A stretch of DNA of 32,000 bases from Trichodesmium erythraeum IMS101 (lineage in GTDB: Bacteria; Cyanobacteriota; Cyanobacteriia; Cyanobacteriales; Microcoleaceae), in contig NC_008312.1 in the NCBI RefSeq assembly GCF_000014265.1, positions 7,620,001-7,652,000 of the forward strand. Reading direction: 5' to 3'. Shown one piece after another: positions 2,202 to 24,228 of this stretch. The notes under the pieces are model-generated. The model had not been told where the DNA came from and did not search any database. It saw only the letters and a program-made list of their open reading frames with translations. The position numbers and the translations under genes are program-made. Numbering within the stretch: position 1 is the first letter of the stretch; each line of letters begins with the position of its first letter.

Positions 2202-3740
2202 ATGTTAAATAACATATACTCCCATCACCAAAAAATCAGTAAATTAATAGGAGGAATATTATTATCAGCGATCACATTAACTAGCTGTACTCCCCAAAAT
2301 CAGACCCTCATACTCTCAAGCGGCGTTGAAGGTGGAGCATACGAGCGTATTGGCAGACAAATAATACATTCAGCTAGTGATGTTGGGAAAATATCTATTG
2401 ACGACAATATATCCCAGGGTTCACAGGAAAACCTACAACGCCTGCGCAATAGAGAAGCAGATATTGCCCTAGTTCAATTAGATGTAGCTAGCGAAGCTAT
2501 GAAAGCTGGACAAATACAAGCAGTAGCTGTTCTTGCTAATGAATATTTGCACCTCATTACCCTATCTGACTCGGAAATAAAAACTTTTCAGGATCTCAAA
2601 GAAAAAAGAGTTAGCTTTAGTACTCCTGGCAGCGGTACTTACTTTACTGCTAAACGACTATTCAGTGCTACAAATTTAAAAATCATAGAAGAAGAACTTG
2701 ATCTAGAACAAGGGTTTAATAAACTTAAACAAAGAGAAATAGATGCTTTAGTTTATGTCGGTCCCTTGGGAGGCAGTAAAAAAGTGAAAAGCCAACTAAC
2801 GAGTCCTCCTAGTCTTAAATTAGTTCCCATAACGACTTCTTTTATTAACTATTTAACTATTCAATTTCCAGAGTCATACCAAAGTACAGTCTTTCCCAAA
2901 GGTAGTTATATGCCTCTATCACCAATACCGGAGAAAGATTTACCGACTATTTCTACTGCTGCTGCTTTAGTAACTCGCCCTGATGTTAGCAAAGAAAAAA
3001 TTGCTCTTTTAACTTGGTCTTTGATTTCATCCTATCAAAAATACTCGTTATTTGATCCAGAATTTTCTCAGGACGACCCTGAGTCTTTGTTGAGTAATGG
3101 TTTACTATATCTCCATCCTGGTGCTAAACTATCATTTGAGCAAGGGGATCCTAGAAAAATTTGGATGCGTTACTTTGAGGAAAATCAAGACTTACAAGCT
3201 AGTTTTATTATTATTTTGTTTACAGGTATTCTCGGTTTTATGCTACGAATGTGGCGTCATAAACAGTGTAAAAAGCTGATTATAAATACCCATTTAGCTC
3301 TCAATGAAATAAGTATGTCTGCACAAACAAATCCTAGTAAAGCTCTTAAAGAGGTGGAAGAGTTAAGACACCAACATCGGTTAATGTTGGTTGAAGGAAA
3401 TTTGTCTAGAGAAGCTTATGAAAAACTAGAGCATATGACACAAGATCTTGCTAATAAGTCTCGAAAACTACAAGAAAAACAACATCGAAAAGATATTCAA
3501 AATACAATAGCATTAATTGATGAGTTTCAAAGTCTTTCAGGAATATGCCAAGAAAAAATGAGAGAAAGACTGGAAACTGCAGCTAATAAATATAGGGAAA
3601 TGTTATTATTAAATCAAATTGATATTCAGACTTACATTCATCTAAACCAGCAGGTTCGTTCCTATCTCAACCAAAATAATAATCATTATTATCAGGTTAA
3701 TAATAATCGTCATTTTCCTATAGGTTCAGAGGATAATTGA
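2202..3740 (+). CDS. TAXI-family-like periplasmic solute-binding lipoprotein fused to a TM helix and a ~170-aa coiled-coil/N,Q-rich tail
   Basis: Lipobox-like signal (LLSAITLTSC). The motifs GGAYERIGRQI and SQGSQENLQRLRNREADIALVQLDVA resemble the TAXI TRAP-receptor signature (GG.Y...G ... GS.eNl..l..geaD.al.q.D). A hydrophobic helix (ASFIIILFTGILGFMLRMW) is followed by heptad-like charged sequence. Confidence 0.55.
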   Translation: MLNNIYSHHQKISKLIGGILLSAITLTSCTPQNQTLILSSGVEGGAYERIGRQIIHSASDVGKISIDDNISQGSQENLQRLRNREADIALVQLDVASEAMKAGQIQAVAVLANEYLHLITLSDSEIKTFQDLKEKRVSFSTPGSGTYFTAKRLFSATNLKIIEEELDLEQGFNKLKQREIDALVYVGPLGGSKKVKSQLTSPPSLKLVPITTSFINYLTIQFPESYQSTVFPKGSYMPLSPIPEKDLPTISTAAALVTRPDVSKEKIALLTWSLISSYQKYSLFDPEFSQDDPESLLSNGLLYLHPGAKLSFEQGDPRKIWMRYFEENQDLQASFIIILFTGILGFMLRMWRHKQCKKLIINTHLALNEISMSAQTNPSKALKEVEELRHQHRLMLVEGNLSREAYEKLEHMTQDLANKSRKLQEKQHRKDIQNTIALIDEFQSLSGICQEKMRERLETAANKYREMLLLNQIDIQTYIHLNQQVRSYLNQNNNHYYQVNNNRHFPIGSEDN

Positions 3741-4215
3741 TTTGTCAAGTTTGTTGTTGTTTATGGTTCGGGTTTAGCTCTTTTTGTTAATTAATTACAA
3801 TAGCAAAATTTGGTGTATAACTTTGGTTTATAACTATTGAGTTATATTTGAGATTATTTAAATGACCATTAGCACTTCCAAATACGTTAAGAAAAAATAG
3901 TTGCTACACTTTTGAAACGATAAACAGAAAATATCAATTCGCATTTGTGGCCGTTATTTTTTCTGTGACTAAAAGTTTAGTCCAAAAACTGGTAAAACAA
4001 TACAAATAAAAATAACTCTTTTAGGGTAAGTATATCTCAAGATGTTAAGTTTTATTAACAAATTCAATATTTATGCTCAAACCCTTATGTTCTCGTTGCC
4101 AAAAATACACTACGAGGGTTTCAGAAGCTTCCTGAACCTGCCTTTTCTTCTTGGATATTTCCTGTTGCTAAAAATTTAATTGTGATATGATGTAGTCCAA
4201 AAACTAGTTGAGGAT

Positions 4216-5325
4216 TTGCTTATGACTATATCACTTCCCCCTAAAAATTCAGAAAGAAACCAAAATGTAGAGCAAATTGACTATTCAATTTTACAAAATA
4301 TTACTCCTGTAGCTAATGAAATTGACAGTAACCCACGAGAATTAGAAAAGGCTTTAATGAGTTTGGGAAAATCAGGTTTATTAGGACTACGAGTTCCTAA
4401 AAAATGGGGGGGTTTAGAATTAAATCAACAAGATTATTTTAATTATCAATTACTTTTAGCAAGACATTCTGGTGCGTTATCTTTTCTCCAAACCCAACAT
4501 CAAAGTGCAGCGGCAATGTTAGCATCAAGTCAAAATTATCAATTACAAAAACAATATTTACCCCATTTGAGCTACGGCAAAATATTATTAGGAATAGCCT
4601 TTTCTCAACTTCGACGCTCTGGGGAAGCACCTGTGAAAGCTGTTCCAACTACGGATGGATATTATATAGAAGGAGTTGTACCTTGGATAACTGGTTGGGG
4701 TATATTTCAAGAGTTTATTATTGCAGCAAAATTACCTGATGGTCAAGCAATTTTTGGTATGATGCCTTTTGTTGAAAATAATCAATTAAATGGCAATATT
4801 ACTTTCTCAAAACCTATGCAGTTGTGTGCTATTAATTCAACTAATACTGTTAGTGCTACAGTTAAGAATTGGTTTTTACCTAATTCACGTTTAGTTTCTA
4901 TTAAACCTAAAAATTATATTCAAGAAAACGATATAAAAAAAATATTATACTTTACTTCGTTTGCTTTAGGATGTGCTTTGGCAGGTATAGATGTTATGAT
5001 AGAAGTGTCAAAAAATAAATCTCTAGCTTTTATTACAGATACTATAAGTTCTCTGACAGCAGAGGTTAATCAATGTCGAAGTTCTATAGAATTAGCTAAT
5101 AAAAATCCTGACATAGATTTTGCTACAAAACTTAATCTTAGAGCAAAAGCTATTAATTTAGCTCAACGTTGTGCTACTGCTGCTGTTACTGTTTCTAGTG
5201 GAGCAGCAAATGATAAAAATAATGCGGCGCAACGGGTTTATCGAGAGGCTCTAGTATATACAGTTTCTGCTCAAACTACAGATATTATGGAAGCTACTCT
5301 CAAAACTTTAATTCCTAGATTTTAA
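4216..5325 (+). CDS. acyl-CoA dehydrogenase family-like protein
   Basis: N-terminal region LGKSGLLGLRVPKKWGGLELNQQDYFNYQLLLARHSGALSFLQTQHQSAA and C-terminal AQRVYREALVYTV...DIMEATL match the general ACAD layout at ~370 aa. The start (TTG versus the ATG two codons later) is uncertain. Confidence 0.6.
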   Translation: MLMTISLPPKNSERNQNVEQIDYSILQNITPVANEIDSNPRELEKALMSLGKSGLLGLRVPKKWGGLELNQQDYFNYQLLLARHSGALSFLQTQHQSAAAMLASSQNYQLQKQYLPHLSYGKILLGIAFSQLRRSGEAPVKAVPTTDGYYIEGVVPWITGWGIFQEFIIAAKLPDGQAIFGMMPFVENNQLNGNITFSKPMQLCAINSTNTVSATVKNWFLPNSRLVSIKPKNYIQENDIKKILYFTSFALGCALAGIDVMIEVSKNKSLAFITDTISSLTAEVNQCRSSIELANKNPDIDFATKLNLRAKAINLAQRCATAAVTVSSGAANDKNNAAQRVYREALVYTVSAQTTDIMEATLKTLIPRF

Positions 5326-5590
5326 CTAATACTAATTTTCTAAAGTCTGACTACAGATAATGTTTTAAGAATAAAATTATATCTTTTATAAACTTTAACT
5401 TACTGGCAACGGAAAGTACTGTAATAATTATGGAAATTTTATGCTATAGTCTAAAAGGTTTACCTATAATTACTAACTTTAAATAGGATTTTTCATTTTA
5501 CGGAGCACTCCAAAAATGTTAATTCCTATTTTTATTGTACAATTTTATATTTTCCGTAAGTCAAGATGTGCTTTTTAAACTGAAAATAAT

Positions 5591-6445
5591 ATGACAGAAG
5601 AAAAGATGCTTGGTTTATCACGAGTATTTGAGTGTGAAAATTCTCATCCTAGAGGTGATATTGTTTTTGTTCATGGGTTAGCTGGCCACCCCTGGGGGAC
5701 ATGGCATCCTCAAGGTAAAAAAAATAATCAAAATTTGGACTTTTGGCCTTTTTGGTTGGGGCAAGATTTACAGAAAGATGAAATAGCTGTTAATGTCTGG
5801 ACTTTTGGATATGATGCGCCTCGCTTTGGATATGTTGGTGAGGGCATGCCGCGTTTTGACTTAGCAAGTAATCTATGGGAATATCTAGATGTTAATGATA
5901 TAGGCGATGGCCCTTTAATATTTATCACTCACAGTATGGGTGGTCTGGTTGTTAAAGATTTAATTCGCACTGCTCAAAATTTTGATGAGAAAAAAGCTAT
6001 TATCCAACAGACTCAAGGAATAGTTTTTTTGTCTACTCCCCATCAAGGTTCACATCTGGCTAATTTAATTGATAATTTTAATGTCTTGACAAAAGCGACG
6101 GTTAATGTTAAGGAGTTGAAAGCCCATGGGCCTCAGTTACGGGACCTGAACGAATGGTATCGACAAAATATTGAAAATTTGAATATTAAAACTCATGTCC
6201 TTTATGAAACTAAGCCTATGGCTGGGGTTTTGGTTGTAGATGAGGATAGTGCTAACCCAGGAATTAAGGATGTTAAACCTGTTGCTGTTGAAGCAGATCA
6301 TAATTCTATTGCTAAACCTCGAAAAAATGATTTGGTTTATCTTTCCGTAAAAAAGTTTGTAAAAAAATATTTGGTGCCTCCACCTACACGACAAAAGTTA
6401 GAATCAATATATTTGAGGCCCCCCCACTCCCAAAATATTATGTAG
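5591..6445 (+). CDS. alpha/beta-hydrolase (esterase/lipase-type) module, probably the N-terminal effector domain of the downstream NB-ARC protein and cut off from it by a frameshift
   Basis: Oxyanion-type VFVHGLAGHP, nucleophile elbow ITHSMGG (GxSxG), later VVDEDSA and EADHNSIAKP as candidate Asp/His. The ORF ends at TAG 6443-6445, just after a C7 run (6419-6425). Confidence 0.8.
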   Translation: MTEEKMLGLSRVFECENSHPRGDIVFVHGLAGHPWGTWHPQGKKNNQNLDFWPFWLGQDLQKDEIAVNVWTFGYDAPRFGYVGEGMPRFDLASNLWEYLDVNDIGDGPLIFITHSMGGLVVKDLIRTAQNFDEKKAIIQQTQGIVFLSTPHQGSHLANLIDNFNVLTKATVNVKELKAHGPQLRDLNEWYRQNIENLNIKTHVLYETKPMAGVLVVDEDSANPGIKDVKPVAVEADHNSIAKPRKNDLVYLSVKKFVKKYLVPPPTRQKLESIYLRPPHSQNIM

Positions 6446-6516
6446 ACCGCCCCGAATACAGTGACAATTTAAAGGCTAATCTACTGATAGATTCATTAGA
6501 TAGGCCTGCTATTGTC

Positions 6517-9500
6517 GTGACTGCTATCCACGGTTTGGGTGCTGTGGGTAAGTCTACTCTGGCAACCGCTTTGGCTTATGATGGGGATGTACAATCTCGT
6601 TTTTGTGATGGTATTCTCTGGGTGACTTTGGGCCAAGAGCCTAATATTTTGCCTATGCTTGGTCGTTGGGTCCAGAAGTTGGGTGACTATGATTTTAAAC
6701 CGACAAGTGTGGAGGTGACTGTTAATCATCTGCGGATTTTGCTTTCTGATAAGGCTGTGCTTTTGGTGGTGGATGATGCTTGGAATTCGGACCATGCTCA
6801 AATATTTAATCTGGGTGGTCCCCGTTGTCAGGTTTTGGTGACTACTCGGGAAAGGGCGATCGCTGAGGCTTTGAGTGCTAAGACTTATAGTCTGGATGTG
6901 ATGACCTTGGAGCAGTCGATGTTGTTGTTGAGTGGGAGGTTGGGCCGTGAGATTTGGGGAGAGGAGGCTCGGCAGGCGGAGGCTTTGGTTCAGGAGTTGG
7001 GATATTTGCCTTTGGCTTTGGAGTTGGCGGCGGCTCAAGTTGAGGATGGTCTGTCTTGGGGTGTGCTGTTGGAGGATATTCAAGGAGAAGTTGCTCGGTT
7101 GAGAACGTTGGATCGACCGGGGGCGAGGGATGTTGTTGATGAGGCTAGTTTAAAACGGTTGAGTTTGACTGCTTCGTTGAATTTGAGTCTTAAGAGACTG
7201 GAGCCGGAAACTAGGGAGGGTTTGATTTGGTTGGGGATATTGCCGGAGGATGTGAATATTACTCAGGGGATGACGGCTGTACTCTGGGATATGGATGATG
7301 AGCGGGATGCCAGGGATGAGTTGGGGTATTTGCGGAGTAAGGCGTTGTTGTTGGATGGTGTGGCTTTGTCTGATGGTAAGAAGAGTTATCGTTTACATGA
7401 TTTATTTCATCATTTGGCTCGGAATTTGTTGAGTGCTCCCCTAAAGCCAAGGGGTAGGGGTGCTCTGGCGGGGTTGGGTATTGGTCTGGCTGAGGCTCAC
7501 GGAATATTTTTGGAGAAATATAGGAGGTTAACTGATAATTATCTTTGGCATACTTTGCCTGATGATGGTTATATTCATCAGCATCTGGTCTGGCATTTTG
7601 AAAGGGCGGGGATGATAGGGGATATTCATGGGTTATTGGGGGAGGAGTCGAAAAGTGGGGCTAATGGTTGGTATGAAACCTGCGATGGTTTGGGGCGAAT
7701 TGGGATTTTTATTACTGATGTGGCTCGTGCTTGGGAGTTAGCAGAGGTTGACTGGGATGAAGGTCGGTTGGCTCAAGTTGTTGGTTGGCAGTGTCGTTAT
7801 GCTTTGATCACTGCTTCTATTAATAGTTTGGCAGCGAATTTACGAAGGGAGTTATTGGTGGCTTTGGTTAAAAACAATGTATGGAGTCCTGAGCAAGGGT
7901 TGGCTTATGCATTACAAAAGCCAGATCTACTGGATAAAGTAAAATCTCTGGTAATGTTAGTTGATTATTTGCCAGAAAACTTCAAAAAACAGGCGCTTTC
8001 AGAAGCACTGGCTGCTGCTCGACAGACTCAGGATGAAGACGATCGCGCCAAAGCTCTCAGTGTTTTGGCTAAGAAATTGACACCAGAGTTATTACCAGAA
8101 GCTCTGGCTGCTGCTCGACATATTCAGTATGAAGACGATCGCGCCAAAGCTCTCAGTGCTTTGACTGATAAGTTACCAGAGTTATTACCAGAAGCTCTGG
8201 CTGCTGCTCGACATATTCAGGATGAAGACGATCGCGCCCATGCTCTCAGTGCTTTGGCTGAGAACTTGACACCAGAATTATTACAAAAAGCTCTGGATGC
8301 TGCTCGACGTATTCAGTCTGCATGCTATCGCGCCCAAGTTCTCAGTGCTTTGGCTGAGAAATTGATGCCAGAATTATTACCAGAAGCTCTGGCTGCTGCT
8401 CGACAGATTCAGGATGAAGACGATCGCGCCCATGCTCTCAGTGCTTTGGCTGATAAATTGACACCAGAATTATTACCAGAAGCACTGGCTGCTGCTCGAC
8501 AGATTCAGGATGAAGACGATCGCGCCCATGCTCTCAGTGCTTTGGCTGATAAATTGACACCAGAATTATTACCAGAAGCACTGGCTGCTGCTCGACATAT
8601 TCAGGATAAATACGATCGCGCCCAAGTTCTCAGTGCTTTGGCTGATAAATTCCCAGAATTATTACCAGAAGCACTGGCTGCTGCTCGACATATTCAGGAT
8701 AAATACGATCGCGCCCAAGTTCTCAGTGCTTTGGCTGATAAATTCCCAGAATTATTACCAGAAGCACTGGCTGCTGCTCGACATATTCAGGGTGAAACAC
8801 ATCGCGCCCAAGTTCTCAGTGCTTTGGCTAAGAAACTGACACCAGAATTATTACCAGAAGCTCTGGCTGCTGCTCGACATATTCAGCATGATAAATATCG
8901 CGCCCAAGTTCTCAGTGCTTTGGCTGAGAAATTCCCAGAATTATTACCAGAAGCTCTGGCTGCTGCTCGACATATTCAGTCTGAGCGGGGTCGCGCCCTA
9001 GTTCTCAGTGCTTTGGCTGAGAAATTACCAGAATTATTACCAGAAGCTCTGGCTGCTGCTCGACATATTCAGGATGAATACTATCGCGCCCTAGTTCTCA
9101 GTGCTTTGGCTGATAAATTCCCAGAATTATTACCAGAAGCTCTGGCTGCTGCTCGACATATTCAGTCTGAGCGGGGTCGCGCCCACGTTCTCAGTGCTTT
9201 GGCTGAGAAATTCCCAGAATTATTACCAGAAGCTCTGGCTGCTGCTCGACATATTCAGGATGAATACTATCGCGCCCAAGTTCTCAGTGCTTTGGCTGAG
9301 AAATTCCCAGAATTATTACCAGAAGCTCTGGCTGCTGCTCGACATATTCAGGATGAATACTATCGCGCCCAAGTTCTCAGTGCTTTGGCTGAGAAATTCC
9401 CAGAATTATTACCAGAAGCTCTGGCTGCTGCTCGACATATTCAGGATGAATACTATCGCGCCCAAGTTCTCAGTGCTTTGGCTGAGAAATTACCAGCAGA

Positions 9501-10248
9501 ATTATTACCAGAAGCTCTGGCTGCTGCTCGACATATTCAGTCTGAACACTTTCGCGCCCACGTTCTCAGTGCTTTGGCTGAGAAATTACCAGCAGAATTA
9601 TTACCAGAAGCTCTGGCTGCTGCTCGACATATTCAGTTTGAGGAAGCTCGCGCCAAAGTTCTCAGTGCTTTGGCTGAGAAATTACCAGAATTATTACCAG
9701 AAGCTCTGGCTGCTGCTCGACATATTCAGTCTGAGTGGGATCGCGCCCAAGTTCTCAGTGCTTTGGCTGAGAAATTACCAGCAGAATTATTACCAGAAGC
9801 TCTGGCTGCTGCTCGACATATTCAGTCTGAGTGGGATCGCGCCAAAGTTCTCAGTGCTTTGGCTGAGAAATTACCAGAATTATTACCAGAAGCTCTGGCT
9901 GCTGCTCGACATATTCAGTCTGAGTGGGGTCGCGCCCAAGTTCTCAGTGCTTTGGCTGAGAAATTACCAGAATTATTACCACAAGCACTGACTATTGCTC
10001 AAGGGATTAAGGATAAGGAATCTCGCGCCCAAGTTATCGTTGCTTTAGCTGATAAATTGACACAAATGCCAAAAACTGAACTTTACCCACTCTGGCAAGA
10101 CACCCTTCACGCCCGATCCCTCCGCACTCGCCGCGACTTACTCTTAGACATAAGAAAACTAACTCCCGTCATCTTTTATTTAGGAGGTCAAGAAGCAATC
10201 AAAAATACAGCCATTGCTATTCAAGAAATTTCCCGGTGGTGGCCTTGA
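6517..10248 (+). CDS. NB-ARC (APAF-1/R-protein type) STAND NTPase with a 22-unit helical repeat array; the annotated GTG start is probably artificial
   Basis: P-loop GLGAVGKSTLA, Walker B LLVVDDAW, VLVTTRERA, LGYLPLALELAA (GLPLA-type) and an MHD-like YRLHDLFHH, followed by 22 repeats of ELLPEALAAARHIQxxxxRAxVLSALAEK(L/F)P. The same frame is open upstream to 6331 with no ATG. It encodes PPLPKYYVDRPEYSDNLKANLLIDSLDRPAIVV, which looks like the missing linker and beta-1 strand. Confidence 0.9.
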   Translation: MTAIHGLGAVGKSTLATALAYDGDVQSRFCDGILWVTLGQEPNILPMLGRWVQKLGDYDFKPTSVEVTVNHLRILLSDKAVLLVVDDAWNSDHAQIFNLGGPRCQVLVTTRERAIAEALSAKTYSLDVMTLEQSMLLLSGRLGREIWGEEARQAEALVQELGYLPLALELAAAQVEDGLSWGVLLEDIQGEVARLRTLDRPGARDVVDEASLKRLSLTASLNLSLKRLEPETREGLIWLGILPEDVNITQGMTAVLWDMDDERDARDELGYLRSKALLLDGVALSDGKKSYRLHDLFHHLARNLLSAPLKPRGRGALAGLGIGLAEAHGIFLEKYRRLTDNYLWHTLPDDGYIHQHLVWHFERAGMIGDIHGLLGEESKSGANGWYETCDGLGRIGIFITDVARAWELAEVDWDEGRLAQVVGWQCRYALITASINSLAANLRRELLVALVKNNVWSPEQGLAYALQKPDLLDKVKSLVMLVDYLPENFKKQALSEALAAARQTQDEDDRAKALSVLAKKLTPELLPEALAAARHIQYEDDRAKALSALTDKLPELLPEALAAARHIQDEDDRAHALSALAENLTPELLQKALDAARRIQSACYRAQVLSALAEKLMPELLPEALAAARQIQDEDDRAHALSALADKLTPELLPEALAAARQIQDEDDRAHALSALADKLTPELLPEALAAARHIQDKYDRAQVLSALADKFPELLPEALAAARHIQDKYDRAQVLSALADKFPELLPEALAAARHIQGETHRAQVLSALAKKLTPELLPEALAAARHIQHDKYRAQVLSALAEKFPELLPEALAAARHIQSERGRALVLSALAEKLPELLPEALAAARHIQDEYYRALVLSALADKFPELLPEALAAARHIQSERGRAHVLSALAEKFPELLPEALAAARHIQDEYYRAQVLSALAEKFPELLPEALAAARHIQDEYYRAQVLSALAEKFPELLPEALAAARHIQDEYYRAQVLSALAEKLPAELLPEALAAARHIQSEHFRAHVLSALAEKLPAELLPEALAAARHIQFEEARAKVLSALAEKLPELLPEALAAARHIQSEWDRAQVLSALAEKLPAELLPEALAAARHIQSEWDRAKVLSALAEKLPELLPEALAAARHIQSEWGRAQVLSALAEKLPELLPQALTIAQGIKDKESRAQVIVALADKLTQMPKTELYPLWQDTLHARSLRTRRDLLLDIRKLTPVIFYLGGQEAIKNTAIAIQEISRWWP
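7990..10068 (+). repeat. 22 tandem in-frame coding repeats of 93 or 96 bp (31/32 aa) inside the NB-ARC gene
   Basis: Direct reading. Units begin GA(A/G)TTATTACCAGAAGC(T/A)CTGGCTGCTGCTCGACATATTCAG. Several neighbouring units are identical or differ at one base (for example the two DKYD units ~8560-8750 and the DEYY units ~9210-9490). The first and last units are more diverged. Confidence 0.95.
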
Positions 10249-11664: not shown

Positions 11665-11689
11665 AGCCTCGGGGTAATCAAGGAATTTC

Positions 11690-12262
11690 AAAAGTCAAAA
11701 CTCAAAACCAGAAAGTAAAAAATCAAAAATAAAAAATAAAAAATAAGAAGTCAAAACTCAAAACTCAAAAGTAAGAAATCAAAAATAAGAAGTAAGAAGT
11801 AAAGGGTCAACTCCCCCCTTTATTTCAGGGGGGGAATTCAAACTTTAGAATGTAAAATTTAAAACTAAAAAATAAGAAGTCAAAAGTAAGAAATTAAGTT
11901 TTAAAAGTCAAAACTCAAAAGAAAGAAATCAAATTTTAAAAGTCAAAATTTAAAAATCAAATTTTAAAAGTCAAAACTTAAAAGTAAGAAATCAAATTTT
12001 AAAAGTCAAAAGTCAACCCCTTCCTTTATCCCAGGGGGAAAGTCAAATTTTAGAATGTAAAACTCAAAAGTCAAAGATAAGAATTCAAAAGTAAGAAATT
12101 AAATTTTAAAATTCAAAACTTAAAAGAAAGAAACCAAAAGTCAAAAGTCAAAACTTAAAACTCAAGATTTAAAAGTCAAAACTCAAATTTTAGAAATTAA
12201 AAATAAGAAGCCAAAAGTCAACCCCCCCCTTCTCCCCTGGGGAAAATCAAAACTTAGAAGAA
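11690..12262. repeat. A-rich nested satellite: degenerate 7-8-mers (AAAGTCA / AAAACTC / AAGTAAG) arranged as about three ~205-bp higher-order units, each with a C-run/G-run hairpin
   Basis: Hairpin cores: CCCCCC-N9-GGGGGGG (11813-11834), CCCC-N13-GGGGG (12017-12038), CCCCCCCC..CCCC-T-GGGG (12222-12242). Spacing is 204 and 205 nt. Each is followed by (T/G)TCAAA(C/T)TTTAGAATGTAAAA-like sequence. It lies between two convergent genes. Confidence 0.85.
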
Positions 12263-15198: not shown

Positions 15199-16134
15199 AT
15201 GGAGTCATTAACCTATATGTTACGACGTAATTTTTTGTATGCCTCACTGCTTACTCTATCTTTTGCAGTTATTTCATGTAATCAAAGTATTTCTGATAAT
15301 CAAACAGCTAGTTCAACCAATACTACAGACTCCCGTTCCGAATTAATAATGGGGTTAATTCCGGCGGAGAGTAACGAGGAAATGGTGGAAAAGTTTGAGC
15401 CGATGCGGGCCTACATGGAAAAGAAACTAAATCGTCCCATAAAAGTTTTTACTGCTACTGACTATGCCGGTGTGATTGAAGCAATGCGGCAAGATAAAGT
15501 TGATATTGCTTGGTTTGGTCCTCTATCATATGTATTGGCGGAACAAGAAGCTGGAGCAGAAGCATTTGCTACTGGAGTTCGTACAAAAACTGGTAAATCT
15601 ACATATAAAAGTATATTAGTTGTTCCAGGAGATTCCACTGTTCAATCAATTCAGGATTTAAAAGGAAAAAATGTAGCATTTGTTGATCCTGCATCTACTT
15701 CAGGTGGGTTAGTTCCCTCTTACTTAGTGTTAAAAGCAACGGGTCAAAAGCCAAAAGATTTCTTTGGTAAGCTTACCTATGCAGGTTCTCATGATGCAGC
15801 AGGAATGGCTGTAAAAAATCAAACTGTAGATGCAGCAGGTACTAATGATATTACTTATAACAAAATGATCAACAAGGGACTAATTTCCGAAGAGAGTAAT
15901 CGTATTTTGTTGGAATCAGAACCAATACCAGGTTCACCTTTAGCTTATCGTCAGGAATTAGATGAGCAAACAAAGAATAATATTCGTGAGACAGTGTTAA
16001 ATGCTCATAAAGATATTAAAGTGACTGGTTATGGGGATCTTTTGAATTATGAATCTGCCACTCCCAAAGACTACGGGGTTGTCCGCGATATGATTAATAC
16101 CCTGGGAATCGGTCGTGAGGAAATCCTCAAGTAA
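15199..16134 (+). CDS. phnD: phosphonate ABC transporter substrate-binding lipoprotein
   Basis: Lipobox (SFAVISC). PhnD-type motifs: GLIPAESNEEMVEKFEPMRAYMEK, DIAWFGPLSYV, FVDPASTSG, YAGSHDA. It sits in a phn operon. Confidence 0.85.
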   Translation: MESLTYMLRRNFLYASLLTLSFAVISCNQSISDNQTASSTNTTDSRSELIMGLIPAESNEEMVEKFEPMRAYMEKKLNRPIKVFTATDYAGVIEAMRQDKVDIAWFGPLSYVLAEQEAGAEAFATGVRTKTGKSTYKSILVVPGDSTVQSIQDLKGKNVAFVDPASTSGGLVPSYLVLKATGQKPKDFFGKLTYAGSHDAAGMAVKNQTVDAAGTNDITYNKMINKGLISEESNRILLESEPIPGSPLAYRQELDEQTKNNIRETVLNAHKDIKVTGYGDLLNYESATPKDYGVVRDMINTLGIGREEILK

Positions 16135-16995
16135 TAGAGGAATGGTTAATGACTATAACTCTGGTATAGTAGGGCTTTAATAAAGTAACTATTATTATGT
16201 ATAAAAAGCTTTAATAATAGTCTTTTGTATCTTCTGCCTTCACCTACTAAGTAGGGTTTGCTGAAAATTTTTTTTTAGGAAGAGAGCATTGACTTAATTC
16301 TAGAATAACTACTTAATACGTTAAAAAGCATGCCATTATACTGCCAATAACCACAAATAAAATCCATCATAACTAAGCTCAAACTGAATAATAAGCAGAA
16401 AAGCCTGATGGATCAACACGGAGGTTATAGCAGATGGTGTTACAATTGGAGGTTAAGTGTGACCGAATGCAGCTTACACAGATGGTTGTAAATCTAATAC
16501 CAGTAAACTTGGAGAAATTTTTACCAATCAAACAAAACCTCTTTATCCTTGGATGAAAAAAGGCGTTAGTTAATCAAGGCATGAAAAGGAAAATTGAATA
16601 ATTTTAAACATCTGTTATTCAATAGTTTAGCAATTACCAAAAAATACAAATCATACCCTAACTTACCAAGGTCAAACGCCAATATAAATTTAAGAAATGC
16701 GGTCGGCTCGACCGTGAATGTCTGTGGATGAGTAACCGCCGACGGCCTCAGTTGAAGCAGGAAGTAAATATAAATTTGTTACGTTATATGACGCTTTGTA
16801 TCAGTTTTATAGAGCAGTCAGAAGTCACTAAAAGTAATGGTAAGAATTGCCCCTTGATTTTCCGGCGTGGTCAGTCTGAAACCCTGATTGTTTGAGGTTA
16901 AACTACCAAAAAGCCAGTTTTTTTCAAAAAAGGCTATAGCCTCTATATGTCAATGCTTTGAGAATTAATCAGCAAGCCCTCATTACTTAACTATT

Positions 16996-17778
16996 ATGTA
17001 TGTAATTCAAATCAATAAAGCAACTAAGACCTATAACAATGGAACAATAGCAGTTCACCCTACTAGTCTCAATTTTGAGCCAGGAACATTTAACGCTATT
17101 CTCGGACCTAGTGGTGCAGGGAAGTCAACTTTGTTACGAATGATCAATGGGTTGGAGATACCAACTACAGGCGAGATCATTATTCAAGGACAAACTTTAA
17201 CGGCTAAAAATTTGCGTCAAGTTCGATCACGCACAGCAATGGTGTTCCAACAGTTTAATCTGGTGGGTCGTTTGAATGTAATGACCAATATCTTAACTGG
17301 GCGTTTGTATTACATTCCCTGGTGGAGCAGTATTTTGTATATGTTTGGCCAAAGAGATTGGAAAATTGCTCAGTGGGCACTTAATAGAGTCAGCCTAAAA
17401 GAAAAAGCTTGGGAACGGGTTGACCGACTTTCAGGAGGACAACAACAACGGGTAGGTGTAGCGAGGGCTTTGGCACAGCGCCCAGAGGTGATTTTGGCTG
17501 ATGAACCCGTTGCTAGTCTTGATCCAATTGCAAGTGAAGAAATCATGGAGTTACTCAGGGAAATTTGCCGTCAAGATGGGATAACCATTGTAGCAAATCT
17601 TCATCAAGTATCCCTGGCTCTGCGCTACGCTGATCGCGTTATTGGTTTAAATAAAGGACGTGTGGTCTTTGATGATTCCCCACAGGCTTTATCTAACAAC
17701 AAGAACACTTTACGCACAATTTATCAGAGGGAGGATGGTAGTGTAGATGATACCTTGGAAATGGCGGTTACCGACTAG
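16996..17778 (+). CDS. phnC: phosphonate ABC transporter ATP-binding protein
   Basis: Walker A GPSGAGKST, ABC signature LSGGQQQRV, Walker B ILADEP. The PhnC-typical FQQFNLV...NVMTNIL region is present, and phnE follows directly. Confidence 0.85.
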   Translation: MYVIQINKATKTYNNGTIAVHPTSLNFEPGTFNAILGPSGAGKSTLLRMINGLEIPTTGEIIIQGQTLTAKNLRQVRSRTAMVFQQFNLVGRLNVMTNILTGRLYYIPWWSSILYMFGQRDWKIAQWALNRVSLKEKAWERVDRLSGGQQQRVGVARALAQRPEVILADEPVASLDPIASEEIMELLREICRQDGITIVANLHQVSLALRYADRVIGLNKGRVVFDDSPQALSNNKNTLRTIYQREDGSVDDTLEMAVTD

Positions 17779-18544
17779 ACATGGATTTGTACCCCTATCC
17801 TGGGGATTGGGTTTGATTTTGCTGCTAGGGGCATTAGGGTCAACAGCAGTACTGATAGAATTGGATGTCTTACGGTTCCTAAAGTCAAGTGGTAATTTCT
17901 GGCAATTTTTTGGTCAATTGCTGACTATGCCAGATTGGACTTATATACCTAAATTATTACTGAAGATGCTGGAAACTATCGAAATGGGTATTGTTTCTAC
18001 GGCGATCGCTCTTTTGTTTAGCTTACCTTTGGGAGTACTTGCAGCCCGAAATACCTCACCACACCTAGTTTTATATCATTGTATTCGCAATGTTCTCAAT
18101 TTGATGCGTGCCTTACCGGAGTTAGTTTGGGCGTTGGTATTTGTTTCAGCTGTAGGTTTGGGGCCTCTGCCTGGGGTAATGGCACTTATTTTTGTGACAA
18201 CAGGCTTTTTGGGGAAATTTTTGGCAGAAAGTATAGAAGTAGTGGATGTTAATGGAGTTACTGGGGTTAAGTCTACGGGAGCTGGATGGTTGCAAACCTT
18301 AACATTTGCAGTTTTTCCCCTCGCTTTACCAGATTTTATTGGCACTGTTCTTTACATTCTAGATCATAACGTACGAGCCGCAACAATTTTAGGGTTAGTA
18401 GGAGCTGGAGGTATTGGGTATGAGTTAGTGATGAGCATGCGGTTATTTAATTACGGTCGTTTGATATTAATTGTTGCAGCCATTTACATAGTGGTGACAA
18501 TATTGGATCGCTTTTCTGATGTGATTCGGAGTCGGGTTATTTAG
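17747..18544 (+). CDS. phnE: phosphonate ABC transporter permease
   Basis: Multi-TM protein with PhnE-type motifs (MRALPELVWALVFV, GFLGKFLAESIE, AATILGLVGAGGIGYEL). The 32-nt overlap with phnC suggests the real start may lie further downstream. Confidence 0.8.
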   Translation: MIPWKWRLPTRHGFVPLSWGLGLILLLGALGSTAVLIELDVLRFLKSSGNFWQFFGQLLTMPDWTYIPKLLLKMLETIEMGIVSTAIALLFSLPLGVLAARNTSPHLVLYHCIRNVLNLMRALPELVWALVFVSAVGLGPLPGVMALIFVTTGFLGKFLAESIEVVDVNGVTGVKSTGAGWLQTLTFAVFPLALPDFIGTVLYILDHNVRAATILGLVGAGGIGYELVMSMRLFNYGRLILIVAAIYIVVTILDRFSDVIRSRVI

Positions 18545-18580
18545 TTAATTACTTATTACTTTTATCTACCTTGAGGTATA

Positions 18581-19378
18581 TTGATGTTTAATTCGTCATT
18601 GAAATTATTAGACTTACCACCCGCTCCCAGAAATTGGGTTCCTTTGTGGATGAGTCTTGCTGTTTTCCTCATTGGAGTCATGATTTGGCATCTTGGACTA
18701 TCTTTTGGCAGTGTGATCGTAGGTATTGGTAATATTTTTGAATATCTCAGTCGTTATCTTAATCCCGACTTTACTGATGGGCCAAGATATTTGATCCTGA
18801 TGCTACAAACATTAGCGATCGCTCTTTGGGGTACAGTATTAGCTTTTCTTACCAGTTTTTTACTCGCACCTTTGGGAGCAAACAATCTCTCACCACACCC
18901 CTTAATTTATCAGCTTATCCGGGAGTTATTCAACTTTATGCGGGCAATGCCAGACTTGATGCTGGCGTTAATTCTGGTTATTATTCTGGGGCTGGGTCCA
19001 ACACCTGGTATTCTAGCATTAGCAATACATACTTCGGGATTTTTAGGTAAGTTTTTTGCTGAGAGTATGGAACGAGTAAATGTAGGTATTTATGAAGGTT
19101 TACGTTCTACTGGAGCTAATATATCTCAAGTTGTTATCTTTGCAGCAGTCCCTTCAATATTGCCAGAGATAGTAGGATATACCCTTTACATCTTTGATCG
19201 AAATGTCCGAATGGCTTCGGTTTTAGGTTTAGTAGGAGCAGGTGGTATTGGTTTGGAACTTCACGATAATTTACGTTTATTTCGGTACAACCAATCTGCA
19301 GCACTGATTTTAGTGATCCTTGTTAGTATTGTGCTTATTGATTATCTTTCTAGTTGGATACGTCGGAGAATTAGCTAA
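18581..19378 (+). CDS. phnE: second phosphonate ABC transporter permease
   Basis: Paralogous to the previous ORF (MRAMPDLMLALILV, GFLGKFFAESME, ASVLGLVGAGGIGLEL). Its stop overlaps the phnG ATG (TAATG). Confidence 0.8.
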   Translation: MMFNSSLKLLDLPPAPRNWVPLWMSLAVFLIGVMIWHLGLSFGSVIVGIGNIFEYLSRYLNPDFTDGPRYLILMLQTLAIALWGTVLAFLTSFLLAPLGANNLSPHPLIYQLIRELFNFMRAMPDLMLALILVIILGLGPTPGILALAIHTSGFLGKFFAESMERVNVGIYEGLRSTGANISQVVIFAAVPSILPEIVGYTLYIFDRNVRMASVLGLVGAGGIGLELHDNLRLFRYNQSAALILVILVSIVLIDYLSSWIRRRIS

Positions 19379-19842
19379 TGGAACAAGTCGATAATCAATG
19401 GTTACGGGCCCTTACAGCCCATGCTCCAGAAATAGTGATTCAACTAGCAGCTCGACTCACCGAAAGTTGGCAAGTTAGTTATGAAGCTGTTCCCCAAACA
19501 GGGTTGTCATTATTGCAACTACAGGATAGTGTATTGCACGAACCCTACTACTTGGGAGAAATTCCCTTATCAACGGCTTGGGTAAAGTTAAAAATAGGCA
19601 ATGGGCAGAATTATGAAGGAGCAGCCCAAGTAATGAGTGATGTGCCAAATTTAGCCACATCATTAGCAATTTGTGATGCCATTTTTGTGAATAAACTGGA
19701 AGGATGGCAAGAGGTTGCAGATTTAATTGAAAGGGGACAGGTAATTCGCCAAGAAGAAGATAACTTGCGGGGGGCTATACTGGCAAAAACCAGAGTAGAT
19801 TTTTCCTTACTAAATCAGGAGGAAAGCGATGCTGAAAGTTGA
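19378..19842 (+). CDS. phnG: C-P lyase core complex subunit PhnG
   Basis: ~150-aa protein at the conserved position directly before phnH-phnI-phnJ. It is translationally coupled on both sides. The call rests mainly on synteny and size. Confidence 0.7.
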   Translation: MEQVDNQWLRALTAHAPEIVIQLAARLTESWQVSYEAVPQTGLSLLQLQDSVLHEPYYLGEIPLSTAWVKLKIGNGQNYEGAAQVMSDVPNLATSLAICDAIFVNKLEGWQEVADLIERGQVIRQEEDNLRGAILAKTRVDFSLLNQEESDAES

Positions 19843-20407
19843 TTTGCCTGGGATTTGGCAAGATGAAGTACAGCAGCAGATTTTCCGTCAGTTGCTCAAT
19901 TGTATGAGCTTACCAGGGACAATTGCTGATTTGAGTTCATATCTGGGAGAAAGTACTGCTTTAATAGGAGTTTTAGCTGCTTTATTAGACAATACAGTGA
20001 CTCTCCATGATACCCATGAATTAATTGGCCAAAGCGATCGCCATTTTTTAAATAGCCCTACTGCACCCCTAACAGAGGCACGTTTTATCGCAGTAGATGG
20101 AACTAATGCTCCTGATACCAACTTTAACCCTAGTTTGGGAACCCTTGCTAGTCCAGAATTGGGAGCAACAATTGTAATTCAAGGTCAGCACTTGGGAAGT
20201 GGTGAATTAACTTTAAGTTTAACTGGACCAGGAATTTTATCTGCCAAGGAAAACAAGGTAGCATTGAATGGGTTCCATCATGGTTGGTTTTCTCGCCGCC
20301 AAGAATGGATAAGTGCTTTTCCTTTGGGAATTGATCTGATTTTGGTGGATGTTACACAAGTAATGATTATTCCCAGAACAACCCAGACAATTTTAAATTT
20401 GGGATAA
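19829..20407 (+). CDS. phnH: C-P lyase core complex subunit PhnH
   Basis: ~190-aa protein between phnG and phnI. The N-terminal FRQLLNCMSLPG is PhnH-like. It overlaps phnG by 14 nt. Confidence 0.7.
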   Translation: MLKVDLPGIWQDEVQQQIFRQLLNCMSLPGTIADLSSYLGESTALIGVLAALLDNTVTLHDTHELIGQSDRHFLNSPTAPLTEARFIAVDGTNAPDTNFNPSLGTLASPELGATIVIQGQHLGSGELTLSLTGPGILSAKENKVALNGFHHGWFSRRQEWISAFPLGIDLILVDVTQVMIIPRTTQTILNLG

Positions 20408-20498
20408 CTCTAGGGTGGCTTGCTTACGACGTAGCGGGTTTACACCACTAGTCTTCTCCTAGCTAGTAAAATTTAGCAGAAATAAAGAGGATAAAAAA

Positions 20499-21593
20499 GT
20501 GGGATATGTTGCAATCAAAGGTGGAGAAACCGCTATTTCTGAAGCGATCGCTTTATTGGATTTCTTGCGGGCTAAGGATAGTAATGAACCTCCTTTATCA
20601 ATTGGAGGCATTCAGCATCAGCTGCACGCACTCCATAGCCGAGTATTATCAGAAGGGGGAATATACCATCCCAAATTAGCAGCCCTAGCAATTAAACAAA
20701 ATGCTGGAGATACTTTAGAAGCAGCTTTTTATCTGCGTGCTTACCGTTCCACCTGTCCTCGGATTGGTATTACCCCCCTGCAGAAAACCGAGCAGATGCG
20801 CTTAATTCGTCGTATTTCCGCTGCTTTCAAAGAAATACCCGGCGGACAAATGCTAGGTCCTACCTCTGATTATTTGCAACGGTTATTTAGATTTGAACTA
20901 TTAGACGAATCTCCCCAACGCTTCCAGCAAATTGCCAAAACATGGTTGCACAACATACCAGATGAGTGTCTTCCTACTAGTTTCCCCAAAGTCCTGGATA
21001 GCTTGCGGGCACAGAATTTACTACCACCTGTAGAAACAAAACTCCATCAACCCTTTGATATTACCAGGGAACCCCTAGTATTTCCAGTTCCCCGTTCTGC
21101 AGCCTTAGCTACCATGTCTCGTGCTGAAACCGGTTCCCTATTAGGAATTGCCTATTCTAATATGCGGGGTTATGGTGATATTCACCCCACTGTAGCAGAA
21201 TTACGTGTGGGTTATTTACCTGTACTACTACCCCATCCTATTTCTGGAGAATTGATGGAAGCGGGTGATGTGTTAATGACAGAGTGCGAAATTGTCGCCA
21301 TGTACGAAGCACCAACTAAGGATAGCAAACCTACCTTTGGCTTAGGCTATGGTGCTTGTTTTGGGCACAACGAAGTCAAGGCAATTTCTATGGCAATTCT
21401 TGATCGTGCTTTGCAAAAAGGGCAGCAACAGGGAGTAGAAAATCCTTCAGAAGACCCAGAATTTGTCCTCCTCCATGTTGATGGGATTGAATCAATGGGA
21501 TTTGCTTCCCATTACAAAATGCCCCACTATGTAACTTTTCAGTCTGATTTAGATCGGTTGAGAACGACCCAAAAAAAAGGAGAAAGCCTATGA
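20499..21593 (+). CDS. phnI: C-P lyase subunit PhnI (ribosyl-triphosphate-phosphonate forming)
   Basis: GTG start preceded by AGAGGA. The opening MGYVAIKGGETAI is the typical PhnI N-terminus. 364 aa, with an ATGA overlap onto phnJ. Confidence 0.85.
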   Translation: MGYVAIKGGETAISEAIALLDFLRAKDSNEPPLSIGGIQHQLHALHSRVLSEGGIYHPKLAALAIKQNAGDTLEAAFYLRAYRSTCPRIGITPLQKTEQMRLIRRISAAFKEIPGGQMLGPTSDYLQRLFRFELLDESPQRFQQIAKTWLHNIPDECLPTSFPKVLDSLRAQNLLPPVETKLHQPFDITREPLVFPVPRSAALATMSRAETGSLLGIAYSNMRGYGDIHPTVAELRVGYLPVLLPHPISGELMEAGDVLMTECEIVAMYEAPTKDSKPTFGLGYGACFGHNEVKAISMAILDRALQKGQQQGVENPSEDPEFVLLHVDGIESMGFASHYKMPHYVTFQSDLDRLRTTQKKGESL

Positions 21594-22537
21594 ATTCCAT
21601 TGCCAAATCATTCCTTCCTGATATACAGCCTAATTTATTAGCAGTTAATTCCCAAGACCAGAGCCCCACCTATCAATTTGGGTTCCTCGATAGTTTTGCG
21701 AAAAAGGAAATTCGCCGTAGCTTACTCAAAGCTGTAGCTATTCCTGGTTATCAAGTACCCTATTCCTCTCGGGAAATGCCTATTGCCCGTGGTTTCGGCA
21801 CTGGTGGCTTGCAAATTACCTTATCTCTTTTGGGCAAAGATGATGTTTTGAAAGTTATCGACCAGGGCAGCGATGAATCGGTAAATGCTGTAAATATCCG
21901 TAATTTTATCAGCAAAACTTGTCCGGGGGTATCCCTCACAAAACATACTCCTGAAGCAACTATCATTCAAACTCGTCATCGCATCCCTGAGTTTCCTCTC
22001 AAGTTAGGGCAGGTGTTAGTACTACAAGTACCTTACCCAGATCCATTGGTAATTGTGGAAGCTAGCGAAGCCAAGCGCAAACAAATGCATGGAGAAGGGG
22101 ATTATGCTAGATTGTGGGTCAAACTCTATGAAGATATGGTTAAATTCTCTGAAATTACCATTTCTCATCGCTATCCCACTCGCATTAATGGACATTATGT
22201 TATCGATCCCTCTCCCATACCTCGTTTTGATGTACCCAAACTCCACCAATCTTTTGGACTACATCTATTTGGAGCGGGACGAGAAAAGAAAATCTATGCA
22301 GTGCCACCATTTACTGATGCTCAACCCCTATGTTTTGAGGATATTCCCTTTCGGGTGGAGAATTTTGACGATGTTGATGGCCGTCGTCGTCCCTGCCATC
22401 GTTGCGGTTCTACTACCAGCTTTTTAGATGAGTTTCTGGATGAGCAAGGTAATTGTATTTATCAGTGTTCTGATAGTGACTACTGTAACACAATGTTGAT
22501 GCAAGCAAAGGAAGATAGTTATGCAACCAATTCTTGA
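21590..22537 (+). CDS. phnJ: C-P lyase catalytic subunit PhnJ (radical SAM-dependent C-P bond cleavage)
   Basis: Conserved YQFGFLD...KKEIRR, AIPGYQVPYSSREMP and GFGTGG, plus a C-terminal cysteine cluster CHRC...C...C-x5-C consistent with the PhnJ Fe-S and catalytic cysteines. Confidence 0.9.
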   Translation: MNSIAKSFLPDIQPNLLAVNSQDQSPTYQFGFLDSFAKKEIRRSLLKAVAIPGYQVPYSSREMPIARGFGTGGLQITLSLLGKDDVLKVIDQGSDESVNAVNIRNFISKTCPGVSLTKHTPEATIIQTRHRIPEFPLKLGQVLVLQVPYPDPLVIVEASEAKRKQMHGEGDYARLWVKLYEDMVKFSEITISHRYPTRINGHYVIDPSPIPRFDVPKLHQSFGLHLFGAGREKKIYAVPPFTDAQPLCFEDIPFRVENFDDVDGRRRPCHRCGSTTSFLDEFLDEQGNCIYQCSDSDYCNTMLMQAKEDSYATNS

Positions 22538-23351: not shown

Positions 23352-23357
23352 ATAACT

Positions 23358-24101: not shown

Positions 24102-24228
24102 ATAATTTGAGGGAAAGTAAACATTAAAATGTTAGTTCTTATGAAGTTTTATATTGGTTTGATGAAGCAGTTAAGCAATTGTGAATGAGTAAATTATTTA
24201 ATCCAAAATCTAAAATTTTCTAGAAGCT

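Follow-up and report, generated by a model that had tools for sequence, protein, structure and literature searches.

We propose that a tandem repeat array in a 32,000-nucleotide stretch of Trichodesmium erythraeum IMS101 DNA (the window; coordinates are window positions, 1 being its first letter) is the ligand-sensing domain of a STAND/NLR-type ATPase, in which a homogenised scaffold would carry a ridge of residues under diversifying selection. We put the probability of this reading at roughly two in three. The gene lies at 6517-10248 and encodes an NB-ARC module, 22 near-identical units and a C-terminal cap, with an alpha/beta-hydrolase encoded upstream in an overlapping frame. A first-pass annotation of the sequence had asked whether the four-residue patch that changes from unit to unit is a diversifying recognition surface, and this suggestion is supported by the substitution pattern, by independent arrays, by the mapping of the variable positions to one face and by the differing patches of close relatives. 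The parts of the locus are as follows.

5591-6445, plus strand: alpha/beta-hydrolase open reading frame (ORF), DUF676/PGAP1/DUF7379-like and lipase-type, 284 amino acids, the likely effector (weak Pfam matches, PADLOC).
6331-6445, plus strand: 115 nt shared by the hydrolase frame and the open NB-ARC frame (scripted translation, homolog comparison).
6517-7989, plus strand: NB-ARC NTPase module and helical (winged-helix / APAF1_C-like) region (Pfam, NCBIfam, motifs, homologs).
7990-10062, plus strand: repeat array, 22 units of 93/96 bp or 31/32 amino acids (Tandem Repeats Finder, translation, AlphaFold2).
10063-10248, plus strand: conserved C-terminal cap (QMPKTELYPLWQDTLH...ISRWWP) and stop codon (cap common to homologs).

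Tandem Repeats Finder reports a single array at 8000-10058 with a period of 93, 21.8 copies and 90% matches, and the translated ORF 6517-10248 gives the unit consensus ELLPEALAAARHIQ-xxxx-RAxVLSALAEKL-P. The units are numbered here from 0 (7990-8085) to 21 (9970-10062). Their number, their lengths and the order of their patches are exactly those first described, as are the alternatives at the residue after RA (Q, H, K or L) and in the linker (P, TP/MP or PA). The edge units 0 and 21 are diverged, as is usual where a homogenised array ends. The 25 scaffold codons have a nucleotide identity of 0.959 across the 20 internal units, against 0.626 for codons 15-18 and 21; counted site by site, diversity is 0.4-0.7 in the patch and 0 over most of the scaffold. 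The scaffold has little synonymous diversity (pS 0.03-0.05), and codons 12, 22, 28 and 30 are also variable, more weakly. Over the same 20 units, about 620 amino acids, identity to the consensus averages 0.87 and pairwise amino acid identity 0.82. The array thus belongs to the class of NLR repeats with high internal repeat conservation (HIC), defined by a Psim of at least 0.7 or by more than 85% identity over at least 100 amino acids.

Recombination has left traces in the form of identical adjacent units and mixed 31/32-amino acid linkers. Units 6 and 7 are the same at the DNA level, as are units 13 and 14, and units 4 and 5 differ by one base, in agreement with the earlier remark on identical neighbours. 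That annotation also read a repeated SERG-DEYY pair as a two-unit block duplication. The pair is indeed shared by units 10-11 and 12-13, but the duplication, though possible, cannot be demonstrated: between the blocks 5 of 186 nucleotides differ, in codons 21, 28 and 30, a period of 189 scores no better in Tandem Repeats Finder than one of 93, and shuffling of single units accounts for the repetition equally well. The patch codons themselves have a distinctive form. Codons 15 and 18 read NNT throughout the 22 units (GAT, TAT, TCT, GGT, CAT, TTT, GCT), their first two bases having changed repeatedly while a synonymous T-to-C change is never seen, and codon 17 keeps a final C (GAC, TAC, CAC, TGC) in 13 of the 22. 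From this pattern the patches look like recent descendants of one ancestral patch near GAT GAA GAC GAT, reached through first- and second-position substitutions.

In an AlphaFold2 (AF2) model made without an alignment, the repeats form a regular two-helix solenoid, with a mean predicted local distance difference test (pLDDT) score of 80 over the 814-residue C-terminal region and, for eight units, a mean pLDDT of 92 and a predicted TM-score (pTM) of 0.81; the C-terminal cap has low pLDDT in this single-sequence model. According to the AF2 secondary structure (DSSP), each unit has helix A at positions 3-11, a turn at 12-15 and helix B at 16-29; residue 15 ends the A-B turn, residues 16-18 are the first turn of helix B and residue 21 stands one turn further. 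Foldseek matches the whole array to the HEAT solenoids CAND1, karyopherins, mTOR and SF3b1, and the best superpositions for eight units are with PP2A-A and VPS35L (TM ~0.6). The units are accordingly modelled as a HEAT-like two-helix alpha-solenoid. No Pfam or NCBIfam model covers the repeat, and the array stays below the cut-offs of the HEAT-type Pfam families (HEAT_2, 15.6 bits against 27.7; HEAT_UF, 17.7 against 30; Laa1_Sip1_HTR5, 22.7 against 27). A sequence search of the PDB with the array returned designed helical-repeat proteins only, at E ~0.004. Several other Pfam matches on the array (TUDOR, 8e-11; PUS7L_N, 5e-11; Phage-MuB_C and others) were set aside as sums of short fragments repeated 20 times rather than homology.

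The family-wide distribution of variation has a clear direction on this predicted fold. Shannon entropy, computed over 309 units of 30 loci, is highest at positions 21 (3.53), 17 (3.51) and 18 (3.25), followed by 25, 12, 15, 28 and 24, and there is next to no variation at positions 3, 13, 19, 23 and 26. Those variable positions that belong to helix B (17, 18, 21, 24, 25 and 28) fall within 60 degrees of one direction (permutation p=0.00035), with the conserved positions 16, 19, 23, 26 and 27 at least 120 degrees away and the conserved hydrophobic positions opposite the variable face. The mapping proposed at the outset, of variable residues to a single face, was thus supported by predicted secondary structure and helical wheel, the face being composed of the A-B turn and one side of helix B. 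Since the units are near-identical, equivalent positions would line up as a continuous stripe along the solenoid. The patches are rich in D (26), E (19), Y (13), S (8) and W (3), with a net charge of -39 over the 22 units and an isoelectric point (pI) of 5.4 for the array. Such an acidic, Tyr/Ser/Trp-rich surface would fit binding to a basic protein partner and argues against the reading of a nucleic acid.

Selection on the variable codons was assessed by joining the 20 internal units in a minimum spanning tree and counting the changes along it, with a one-sided test of omega, the ratio of nonsynonymous to synonymous change. The five variable codons have 41 nonsynonymous and 3 synonymous changes (omega 2.45, p=0.08), a cruder count giving 33 and 1, and the scaffold has 20 and 6 (omega ~1.15). 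The suggested test of per-site diversity and dN/dS therefore places the variation in codons 15-18 and 21 and finds an excess of replacements there, at a marginal p value. In three other homogenised arrays the same codons have an omega of 4-9 (L014, p=0.013; L027, p=0.003; L006, p=0.011) and the scaffolds one of 0.4-0.7. Old diverged arrays, in which the signal is saturated, have an omega below 1 at these codons (0.6-0.8 in L001, L002, L021 and L022). Because the third bases of codons 15 and 18 have stayed fixed while the first two changed, the excess is in amino acid change and not in mutation rate. The substitution pattern agrees with selection favouring new residues, and neither local hypermutation nor ancient divergence would predict it.

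The same repeat occurs in 32 genomic loci, in arrays of up to 28 units, and 19 of the 32 loci have at least 15; arrays of 17-28 units are the norm in homologs, complete genomes included. Scaffold nucleotide identity, 0.96 for the 20 internal units of the window, is 0.95 in Scytonema hyalinum (L014), 0.90 in both L016 and L027, and 0.59-0.67 in the lowest arrays. The IMS101 array is therefore at the extreme of homogenisation, and is not unique. A scan of 1.84 billion representative proteins found 1,997 clusters (50% identity) with the repeat at E<=1e-10; the proteins in them are typically 1,200-2,000 residues long with the repeats C-terminal, and the repeat is also found behind NACHT, AAA_16 and KAP NTPases. 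A protein search with the array itself gave only distant relatives among the best 120.

Closer relatives reveal both how stable and how changeable the array has been. A metagenome-assembled genome (MAG) of T. erythraeum, GBRTRLIN201, matches positions 3511-9258 with 2 mismatches over 5,748 nt, its contig then ending inside the array, and this independent assembly, made from a different sample, confirms the order of units 0-12. The two differences, at 9092 and 9114, both make unit 11 read like units 13/14, with Q in place of L at codon 21 and E in place of D at codon 28, and they represent either gene conversion or a short-read assembly artefact. Trichodesmium sp. ALOHA_ZT_67, with 97.9% DNA identity in the flanks (L033, 3001-4938), has 3 units with the patches SDKE, SEYD and NDTG; its last unit is of the homogenised type, versus the diverged last unit of IMS101. 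The short array may be a real contraction or an assembly collapse in a short-read MAG. A contig from ENA with 97.6% identity starts with the patches SEWR and YEGN. None of the patches from these two sources is present in IMS101, and the comparison among relatives thus yielded DNA about 98% identical with wholly different patches. In unit 0, compared as a positional ortholog between IMS101 and a relative, 7 of 15 patch nucleotides differ against a background of 2.1% (p=1e-8). Two scans of JGI metagenomes for the exact patch patterns returned 0 matches and then 4 unrelated single matches.

The body that carries the array is, judged by its sequence, a STAND/NLR-type NB-ARC ATPase. The NB-ARC profile PF00931 matches residues 3-172 with E=3.2e-18 (66.4 bits against a cut-off of 23.5), the AfsR NTPase region of NCBIfam matches the module at 5e-23, and APAF1_C gives a weak Pfam match in the helical region that follows. 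We take GLGAVGKST (6532-6558) to be Walker A, LLVVDDAW (6760-6783) Walker B, VLVTTRE (VLVTTR at 6832-6852) the TTR or sensor-1 motif, GYLPLALE (GYLPLAL at 7000-7023) the GLPL-like motif and RLHDLFHHL (7390-7416) the MHD-like motif, and all of them are intact. The NB-ARC part has 370 detectable homologs, nearly all of them NB-ARC proteins of filamentous cyanobacteria. Many are annotated as partial, on contigs that end within the repeats, and the same C-terminal cap closes the homologs P0003, P0052, P0065, P0092 and P0153. N-terminal modules vary on the same NB-ARC-repeat body and include effector-associated domains (EADs), TIR, trypsin, caspase and CHAT. Two further ORFs, at 9101-9991 on the plus strand (296 amino acids) and 6496-7083 on the minus strand (195 amino acids), are frame shadows of the array and of the NB-ARC gene; the repeat unit has no stops in a second frame, and neither ORF is a gene.

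Taken as a receptor, the protein could work in the following way. Duplication, loss and gene conversion of units, through unequal recombination between them, would keep the scaffold near-identical, and selection would favour replacements on the ridge, so that binding specificity could shift quickly on a constant fold. The variable residues would form an exposed acidic, Tyr/Ser/Trp-rich ridge, probably the surface to which the ligand binds. Binding of something non-self, for which a protein of a phage or another foreign protein is the likeliest candidate, would release the NB-ARC module to oligomerise, and the oligomer would activate the lipase-like alpha/beta-hydrolase encoded upstream, to which the NB-ARC module is probably fused by a -1 frameshift. 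The outcome might be cell death or growth arrest in the filament. The analysis shows the gene architecture, the motifs, the anatomy of the repeats, their substitution pattern, the class of fold and the distribution of the family. Avs proteins, bacterial NLRs and fungal NLRs are the models from which we infer that the ridge binds a ligand, what the ligand is, how activation proceeds and what the hydrolase does.

The link between hydrolase and receptor is of a particular kind. Besides its weak Pfam matches to several alpha/beta-hydrolase families, the hydrolase matches DUF626_VIII (1e-22) and LmuA (1e-7) in PADLOC, and it has a nucleophile elbow THSMGG at 5927-5944 with a candidate catalytic Asp at 6233-6253 and His at 6290-6307. 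Its stop codon is at 6443-6445. The NB-ARC frame is open from 6331 and has no ATG, GTG or TTG for 62 codons, until the GTG at 6517; a start there would cut the strand AIVVTAIHG that precedes the P-loop. The overlap contains two slippery heptamers in the hydrolase register, A_AAA_AAG (GTA AAA AAG, 6349-6355) and A_AAA_AAA (GTA AAA AAA, 6361-6367). A -1 shift would give a product reading NDLVYLSVKK and then VCKKIFGASTYTTKVRINIFEAPPLPKYYVDRPEY, a peptide that matches the N-termini of paralogs (MFTTSSYTRIVKINMFQTPPIPRYYVDRPEY), and at a Trichodesmium MAG locus (L002) NDLVYL runs in frame into that same sequence. The two-frame layout recurs in Trichodesmium ALOHA_ZT_67 (L033), Dapis BLCC M126 (L034) and Okeania SIO1H6 (L041), and all four taxa still have the first A6 run, as A_AAA_AAG in three and A_AAA_AAT in Dapis. 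No RNA stimulator was predicted downstream of the slippery site (minimum free energy -8.3 kcal/mol, z=+1.1). A frameshift in the run of seven C at 6419-6425 was ruled out, the NB-ARC frame being already open and homologous upstream of it, which puts the frame change at or before the A-runs at 6349-6367.

From these comparisons it is a reasonable hypothesis that a programmed -1 frameshift or transcriptional slippage fuses the hydrolase to the NB-ARC protein, and a non-canonical start or a tolerated split instead of a frameshift is possible. More tentatively, and with the balance of our opinion against it, the full receptor might be made only on -1 slippage at 6349-6367, so that the cell would hold mostly free hydrolase and a small, tunable share fused to the sensor, the recoding setting the dose and the ridge being re-specifiable. 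We know of no NLR for which this combination of recoding-set dose control and a re-specifiable ridge has been described. Close homologs of the hydrolase (~55-63% identity, 275-310 amino acids) stand alone without a downstream NB-ARC gene in Moorena producens JHB (L039) and Nostoc sp. (L040), and a few others are fused to AAA-like (PF14516) domains, which indicates that the hydrolase effector moves between contexts. A shift in GC content at third codon positions (GC3) was also observed at the hydrolase/NB-ARC junction (5591-10245): 0.26 in the hydrolase, 0.15-0.29 in the flanking genes and 0.45 in the NB-ARC/helical part, where overall GC is 0.47. This compositional break suggests that the effector and the body of NB-ARC and repeats differ in history, either because modules were swapped or because of a horizontal origin.

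Several points weigh against a diversifying receptor. The selection signal within the single IMS101 array is marginal and comes from a heuristic tree that ignores recombination, and the scaffold omega of ~1.15 is inflated by the moderately variable codons 12, 28 and 30. Units 0-12 are common to both T. erythraeum assemblies, and turnover is thus not fast at the level of strains. Exposure and ridge geometry are read from predicted secondary structure and helical periodicity. Hydrolase and NB-ARC protein are in separate frames, and without a frameshift the latter would start inside the strand before the P-loop and might be non-functional. Lastly, the locus stands outside any obvious defence island, among transport, radical-SAM and phosphonate genes, and PADLOC has no model that matches the NB-ARC protein.

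As an alternative, the array might reflect concerted evolution with relaxed constraint only, its units serving as scaffold or spacer while the turn residues drift without recognition-driven selection. The variable residues do sit in a turn and at the N-terminal end of a helix, places that are often weakly constrained, and the omega of only 2.45 (p=0.08) in IMS101 and the values of 0.6-0.8 in the old diverged arrays are in keeping with drift. However, drift predicts an omega near 1, against 4-9 in three independent homogenised arrays, and homogenisation should erase neutral patch differences, yet the patches of units with identical flanks differ at up to 8 of 12 nucleotides. The same positions are variable across the family on one helical face, and the bias of the patches towards Tyr, Trp, Ser, Asp and Glu is non-random, so that we consider drift unlikely. 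A decaying pseudogene, in which the frame break marks a dead gene and the array is neutral, would account for the want of a canonical start before 6517 and for the truncated pre-P-loop strand of a protein begun there. This seems improbable to us for a 3.9-kb frame that has no stops and retains every catalytic NB-ARC motif. Moreover, four taxa with NB-ARC proteins no more than 76-79% identical have all retained the two-frame layout and the slippery site, and a hand count between Trichodesmium and Dapis past the A-runs gives 6 differences in the -1 frame against 12 in the hydrolase frame.

Mis-assembly of near-identical repeats, affecting array length or unit order, was a concern of the first-pass annotation and has some points in its favour: 93-bp units of this kind are difficult to assemble, many database homologs are partial and end inside the array, ALOHA_ZT_67 has 3 units and the GBRTRLIN201 contig breaks within the array. 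For units 0-12, on the other hand, the concern is answered by their recovery in the same order in that independent assembly. The flanking proteins match IMS101 records on a single contig of 7,750,108 bp, taken as a finished genome, arrays of similar length are normal in homologs, and the patches make most units unique in sequence; an artefact is in our view a slim prospect. Targeted hypermutation, by a diversity-generating retroelement (DGR) or another local mutator that rewrites the patch, might be considered for the reason that DGRs diversify putative sensors in multicellular cyanobacteria (PMC10907252, PMC7159879) and that the NNT form of codons 15 and 18 superficially resembles the NNC/NNT of DGR variable regions. 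Here there are 22 tandem variable sites instead of one variable region, changes affect all base types and are not limited to the adenines of a single template, third positions beside the most variable bases are fixed, and there is no clear rise of the synonymous rate within the patch. The ORFs scanned in the window include no reverse transcriptase and the 32 kb showed no template repeat, the rest of the genome not having been searched, and we judge such a mutator to be very improbable. Equally remote is a TALE/PPR-like code in which each unit would read one nucleic acid base through its variable residues. TALE repeats are 33-35-amino acid units in which two hypervariable loop residues read the bases of DNA, and near-identical two-helix units of ~32 amino acids with a hypervariable inter-helix turn are formally similar. 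The strong acidity of the patches and of the array, the extension of the variable set along helix B and the failure of sequence search and Foldseek to match the array to TALE, PUF or PPR repeats all speak against it.

The proposed ligand-sensing array with a selected ridge has its nearest counterpart in the fungal NLRs, whose repeat regime is well described and includes the sesB-like hydrolase/NB-ARC/TPR and sesB-like/NACHT/HEAT genes of Podospora (PMC4986451). The Trichodesmium locus has the same tripartite layout of alpha/beta-hydrolase effector, STAND NTPase and superstructure-forming repeats, its units are more than 85% identical to their consensus with signs of unit shuffling, and the variation is limited to a few positions with an excess of replacements that map to a predicted binding surface. 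It differs in its bacterial host, in a 31/32-amino acid HEAT-like unit that has no Pfam model and is not WD40, ANK or the 42-amino acid TPR, in the absence of repeat-induced point mutation (RIP), a contributor in fungi, and in having the effector in a separate overlapping frame. The resemblance to Avs and other bacterial NLR-related STAND proteins (Gao 2022; Kibby 2023; PMC13581612) is in the order of N-terminal effector, STAND NTPase and C-terminal helical-repeat sensor; the characterised sensors of that group bind phage proteins and trigger cell death (same sources). The Avs sensors characterised so far, however, consist of diverged TPR-like or beta-propeller domains, and what they recognise is conserved folds, whereas the Trichodesmium units are near-identical with hypervariable patches. 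Like the HEAT solenoids of the PP2A A subunit, VPS35L and the karyopherins, the predicted unit has two antiparallel helices and the units stack, but it is shorter (31/32 amino acids), far more regular and without a significant Pfam HEAT match.

The implication of the first-pass annotation that a bacterial setting is new does not stand, as repetitive WD and TPR repeats with 80-90% internal identity had already been noted in NLRs of bacteria, namely Actinobacteria and Cyanobacteria (bioRxiv 10.1101/2020.01.06.895854; PMC13449251, section 12). Those repeats of multicellular bacteria display the same phenomenon, and the evolutionary regime proposed for them does not differ. These surveys used WD40, TPR, ANK and LRR repeats annotated by SMART and Pfam and did not include HEAT-like ones, an exclusion that is explicit in the survey across domains of life (PMC13449251, sections 12 and 20); the Trichodesmium repeat family, unlike those surveyed, is invisible to such annotations. 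Kaur et al. (PMC7159879) and a 2026 survey of STAND proteins (PMC13581612) do not describe such a repeat regime, and we found no earlier map of variable positions or estimate of omega for this family in the sources consulted. What is known, therefore, is the evolutionary regime in fungal and bacterial NLRs, and what is new is its carriage on an unannotated repeat family.

The proteins flanking the NB-ARC gene are identical to the T. erythraeum IMS101 records ABG53902.1 (DUF676-type hydrolase) and ABG53904.1 (radical SAM). Genes occur in the order NMT1-like binding protein, acyl-CoA-dehydrogenase-like protein, hydrolase, NB-ARC protein, radical-SAM protein and EamA transporter, with a phn C-P lyase cluster further downstream. 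No reverse transcriptase, transposase or recognisable defence island was found in the 32-kb window. AT-rich tandem repeats of the TCAAAAA type, with periods of 7, 14, 28, 35, 56 and 63, occupy 11688-12000 between the radical-SAM and EamA-like genes. A 398-amino acid ORF at 28976-30172 matches Pfam HEAT_2 (8.6e-13) and is an ordinary HEAT-repeat protein whose sequence is unrelated to the array. The downstream cluster, likewise unrelated to the array, is listed here for completeness.

15199-25377: phosphonate uptake and C-P lyase cluster, comprising a phosphonate-binding protein, ABC ATPase, permease, PhnI, PhnJ and an amidohydrolase (PhnM-like).

If the proposed reading of the array is right, a device familiar from fungal receptors, in which a rigid, self-homogenising scaffold carries a few fast-changing contact residues, would also be at work in a cyanobacterium, one that is marine, forms blooms and fixes nitrogen. 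Counts of such bacterial receptors based on WD40, TPR, ANK and LRR annotation would be too low, given the ~2,000 clusters with this unnamed repeat. The unit itself is an attractive natural scaffold, being well predicted, 31 residues long and provided with five or six designable positions. The Trichodesmium gene also offers a system for finding out what such receptors detect, be it proteins of cyanophages or filaments that are non-self, and there is a possible tie to the programmed cell death of this organism.

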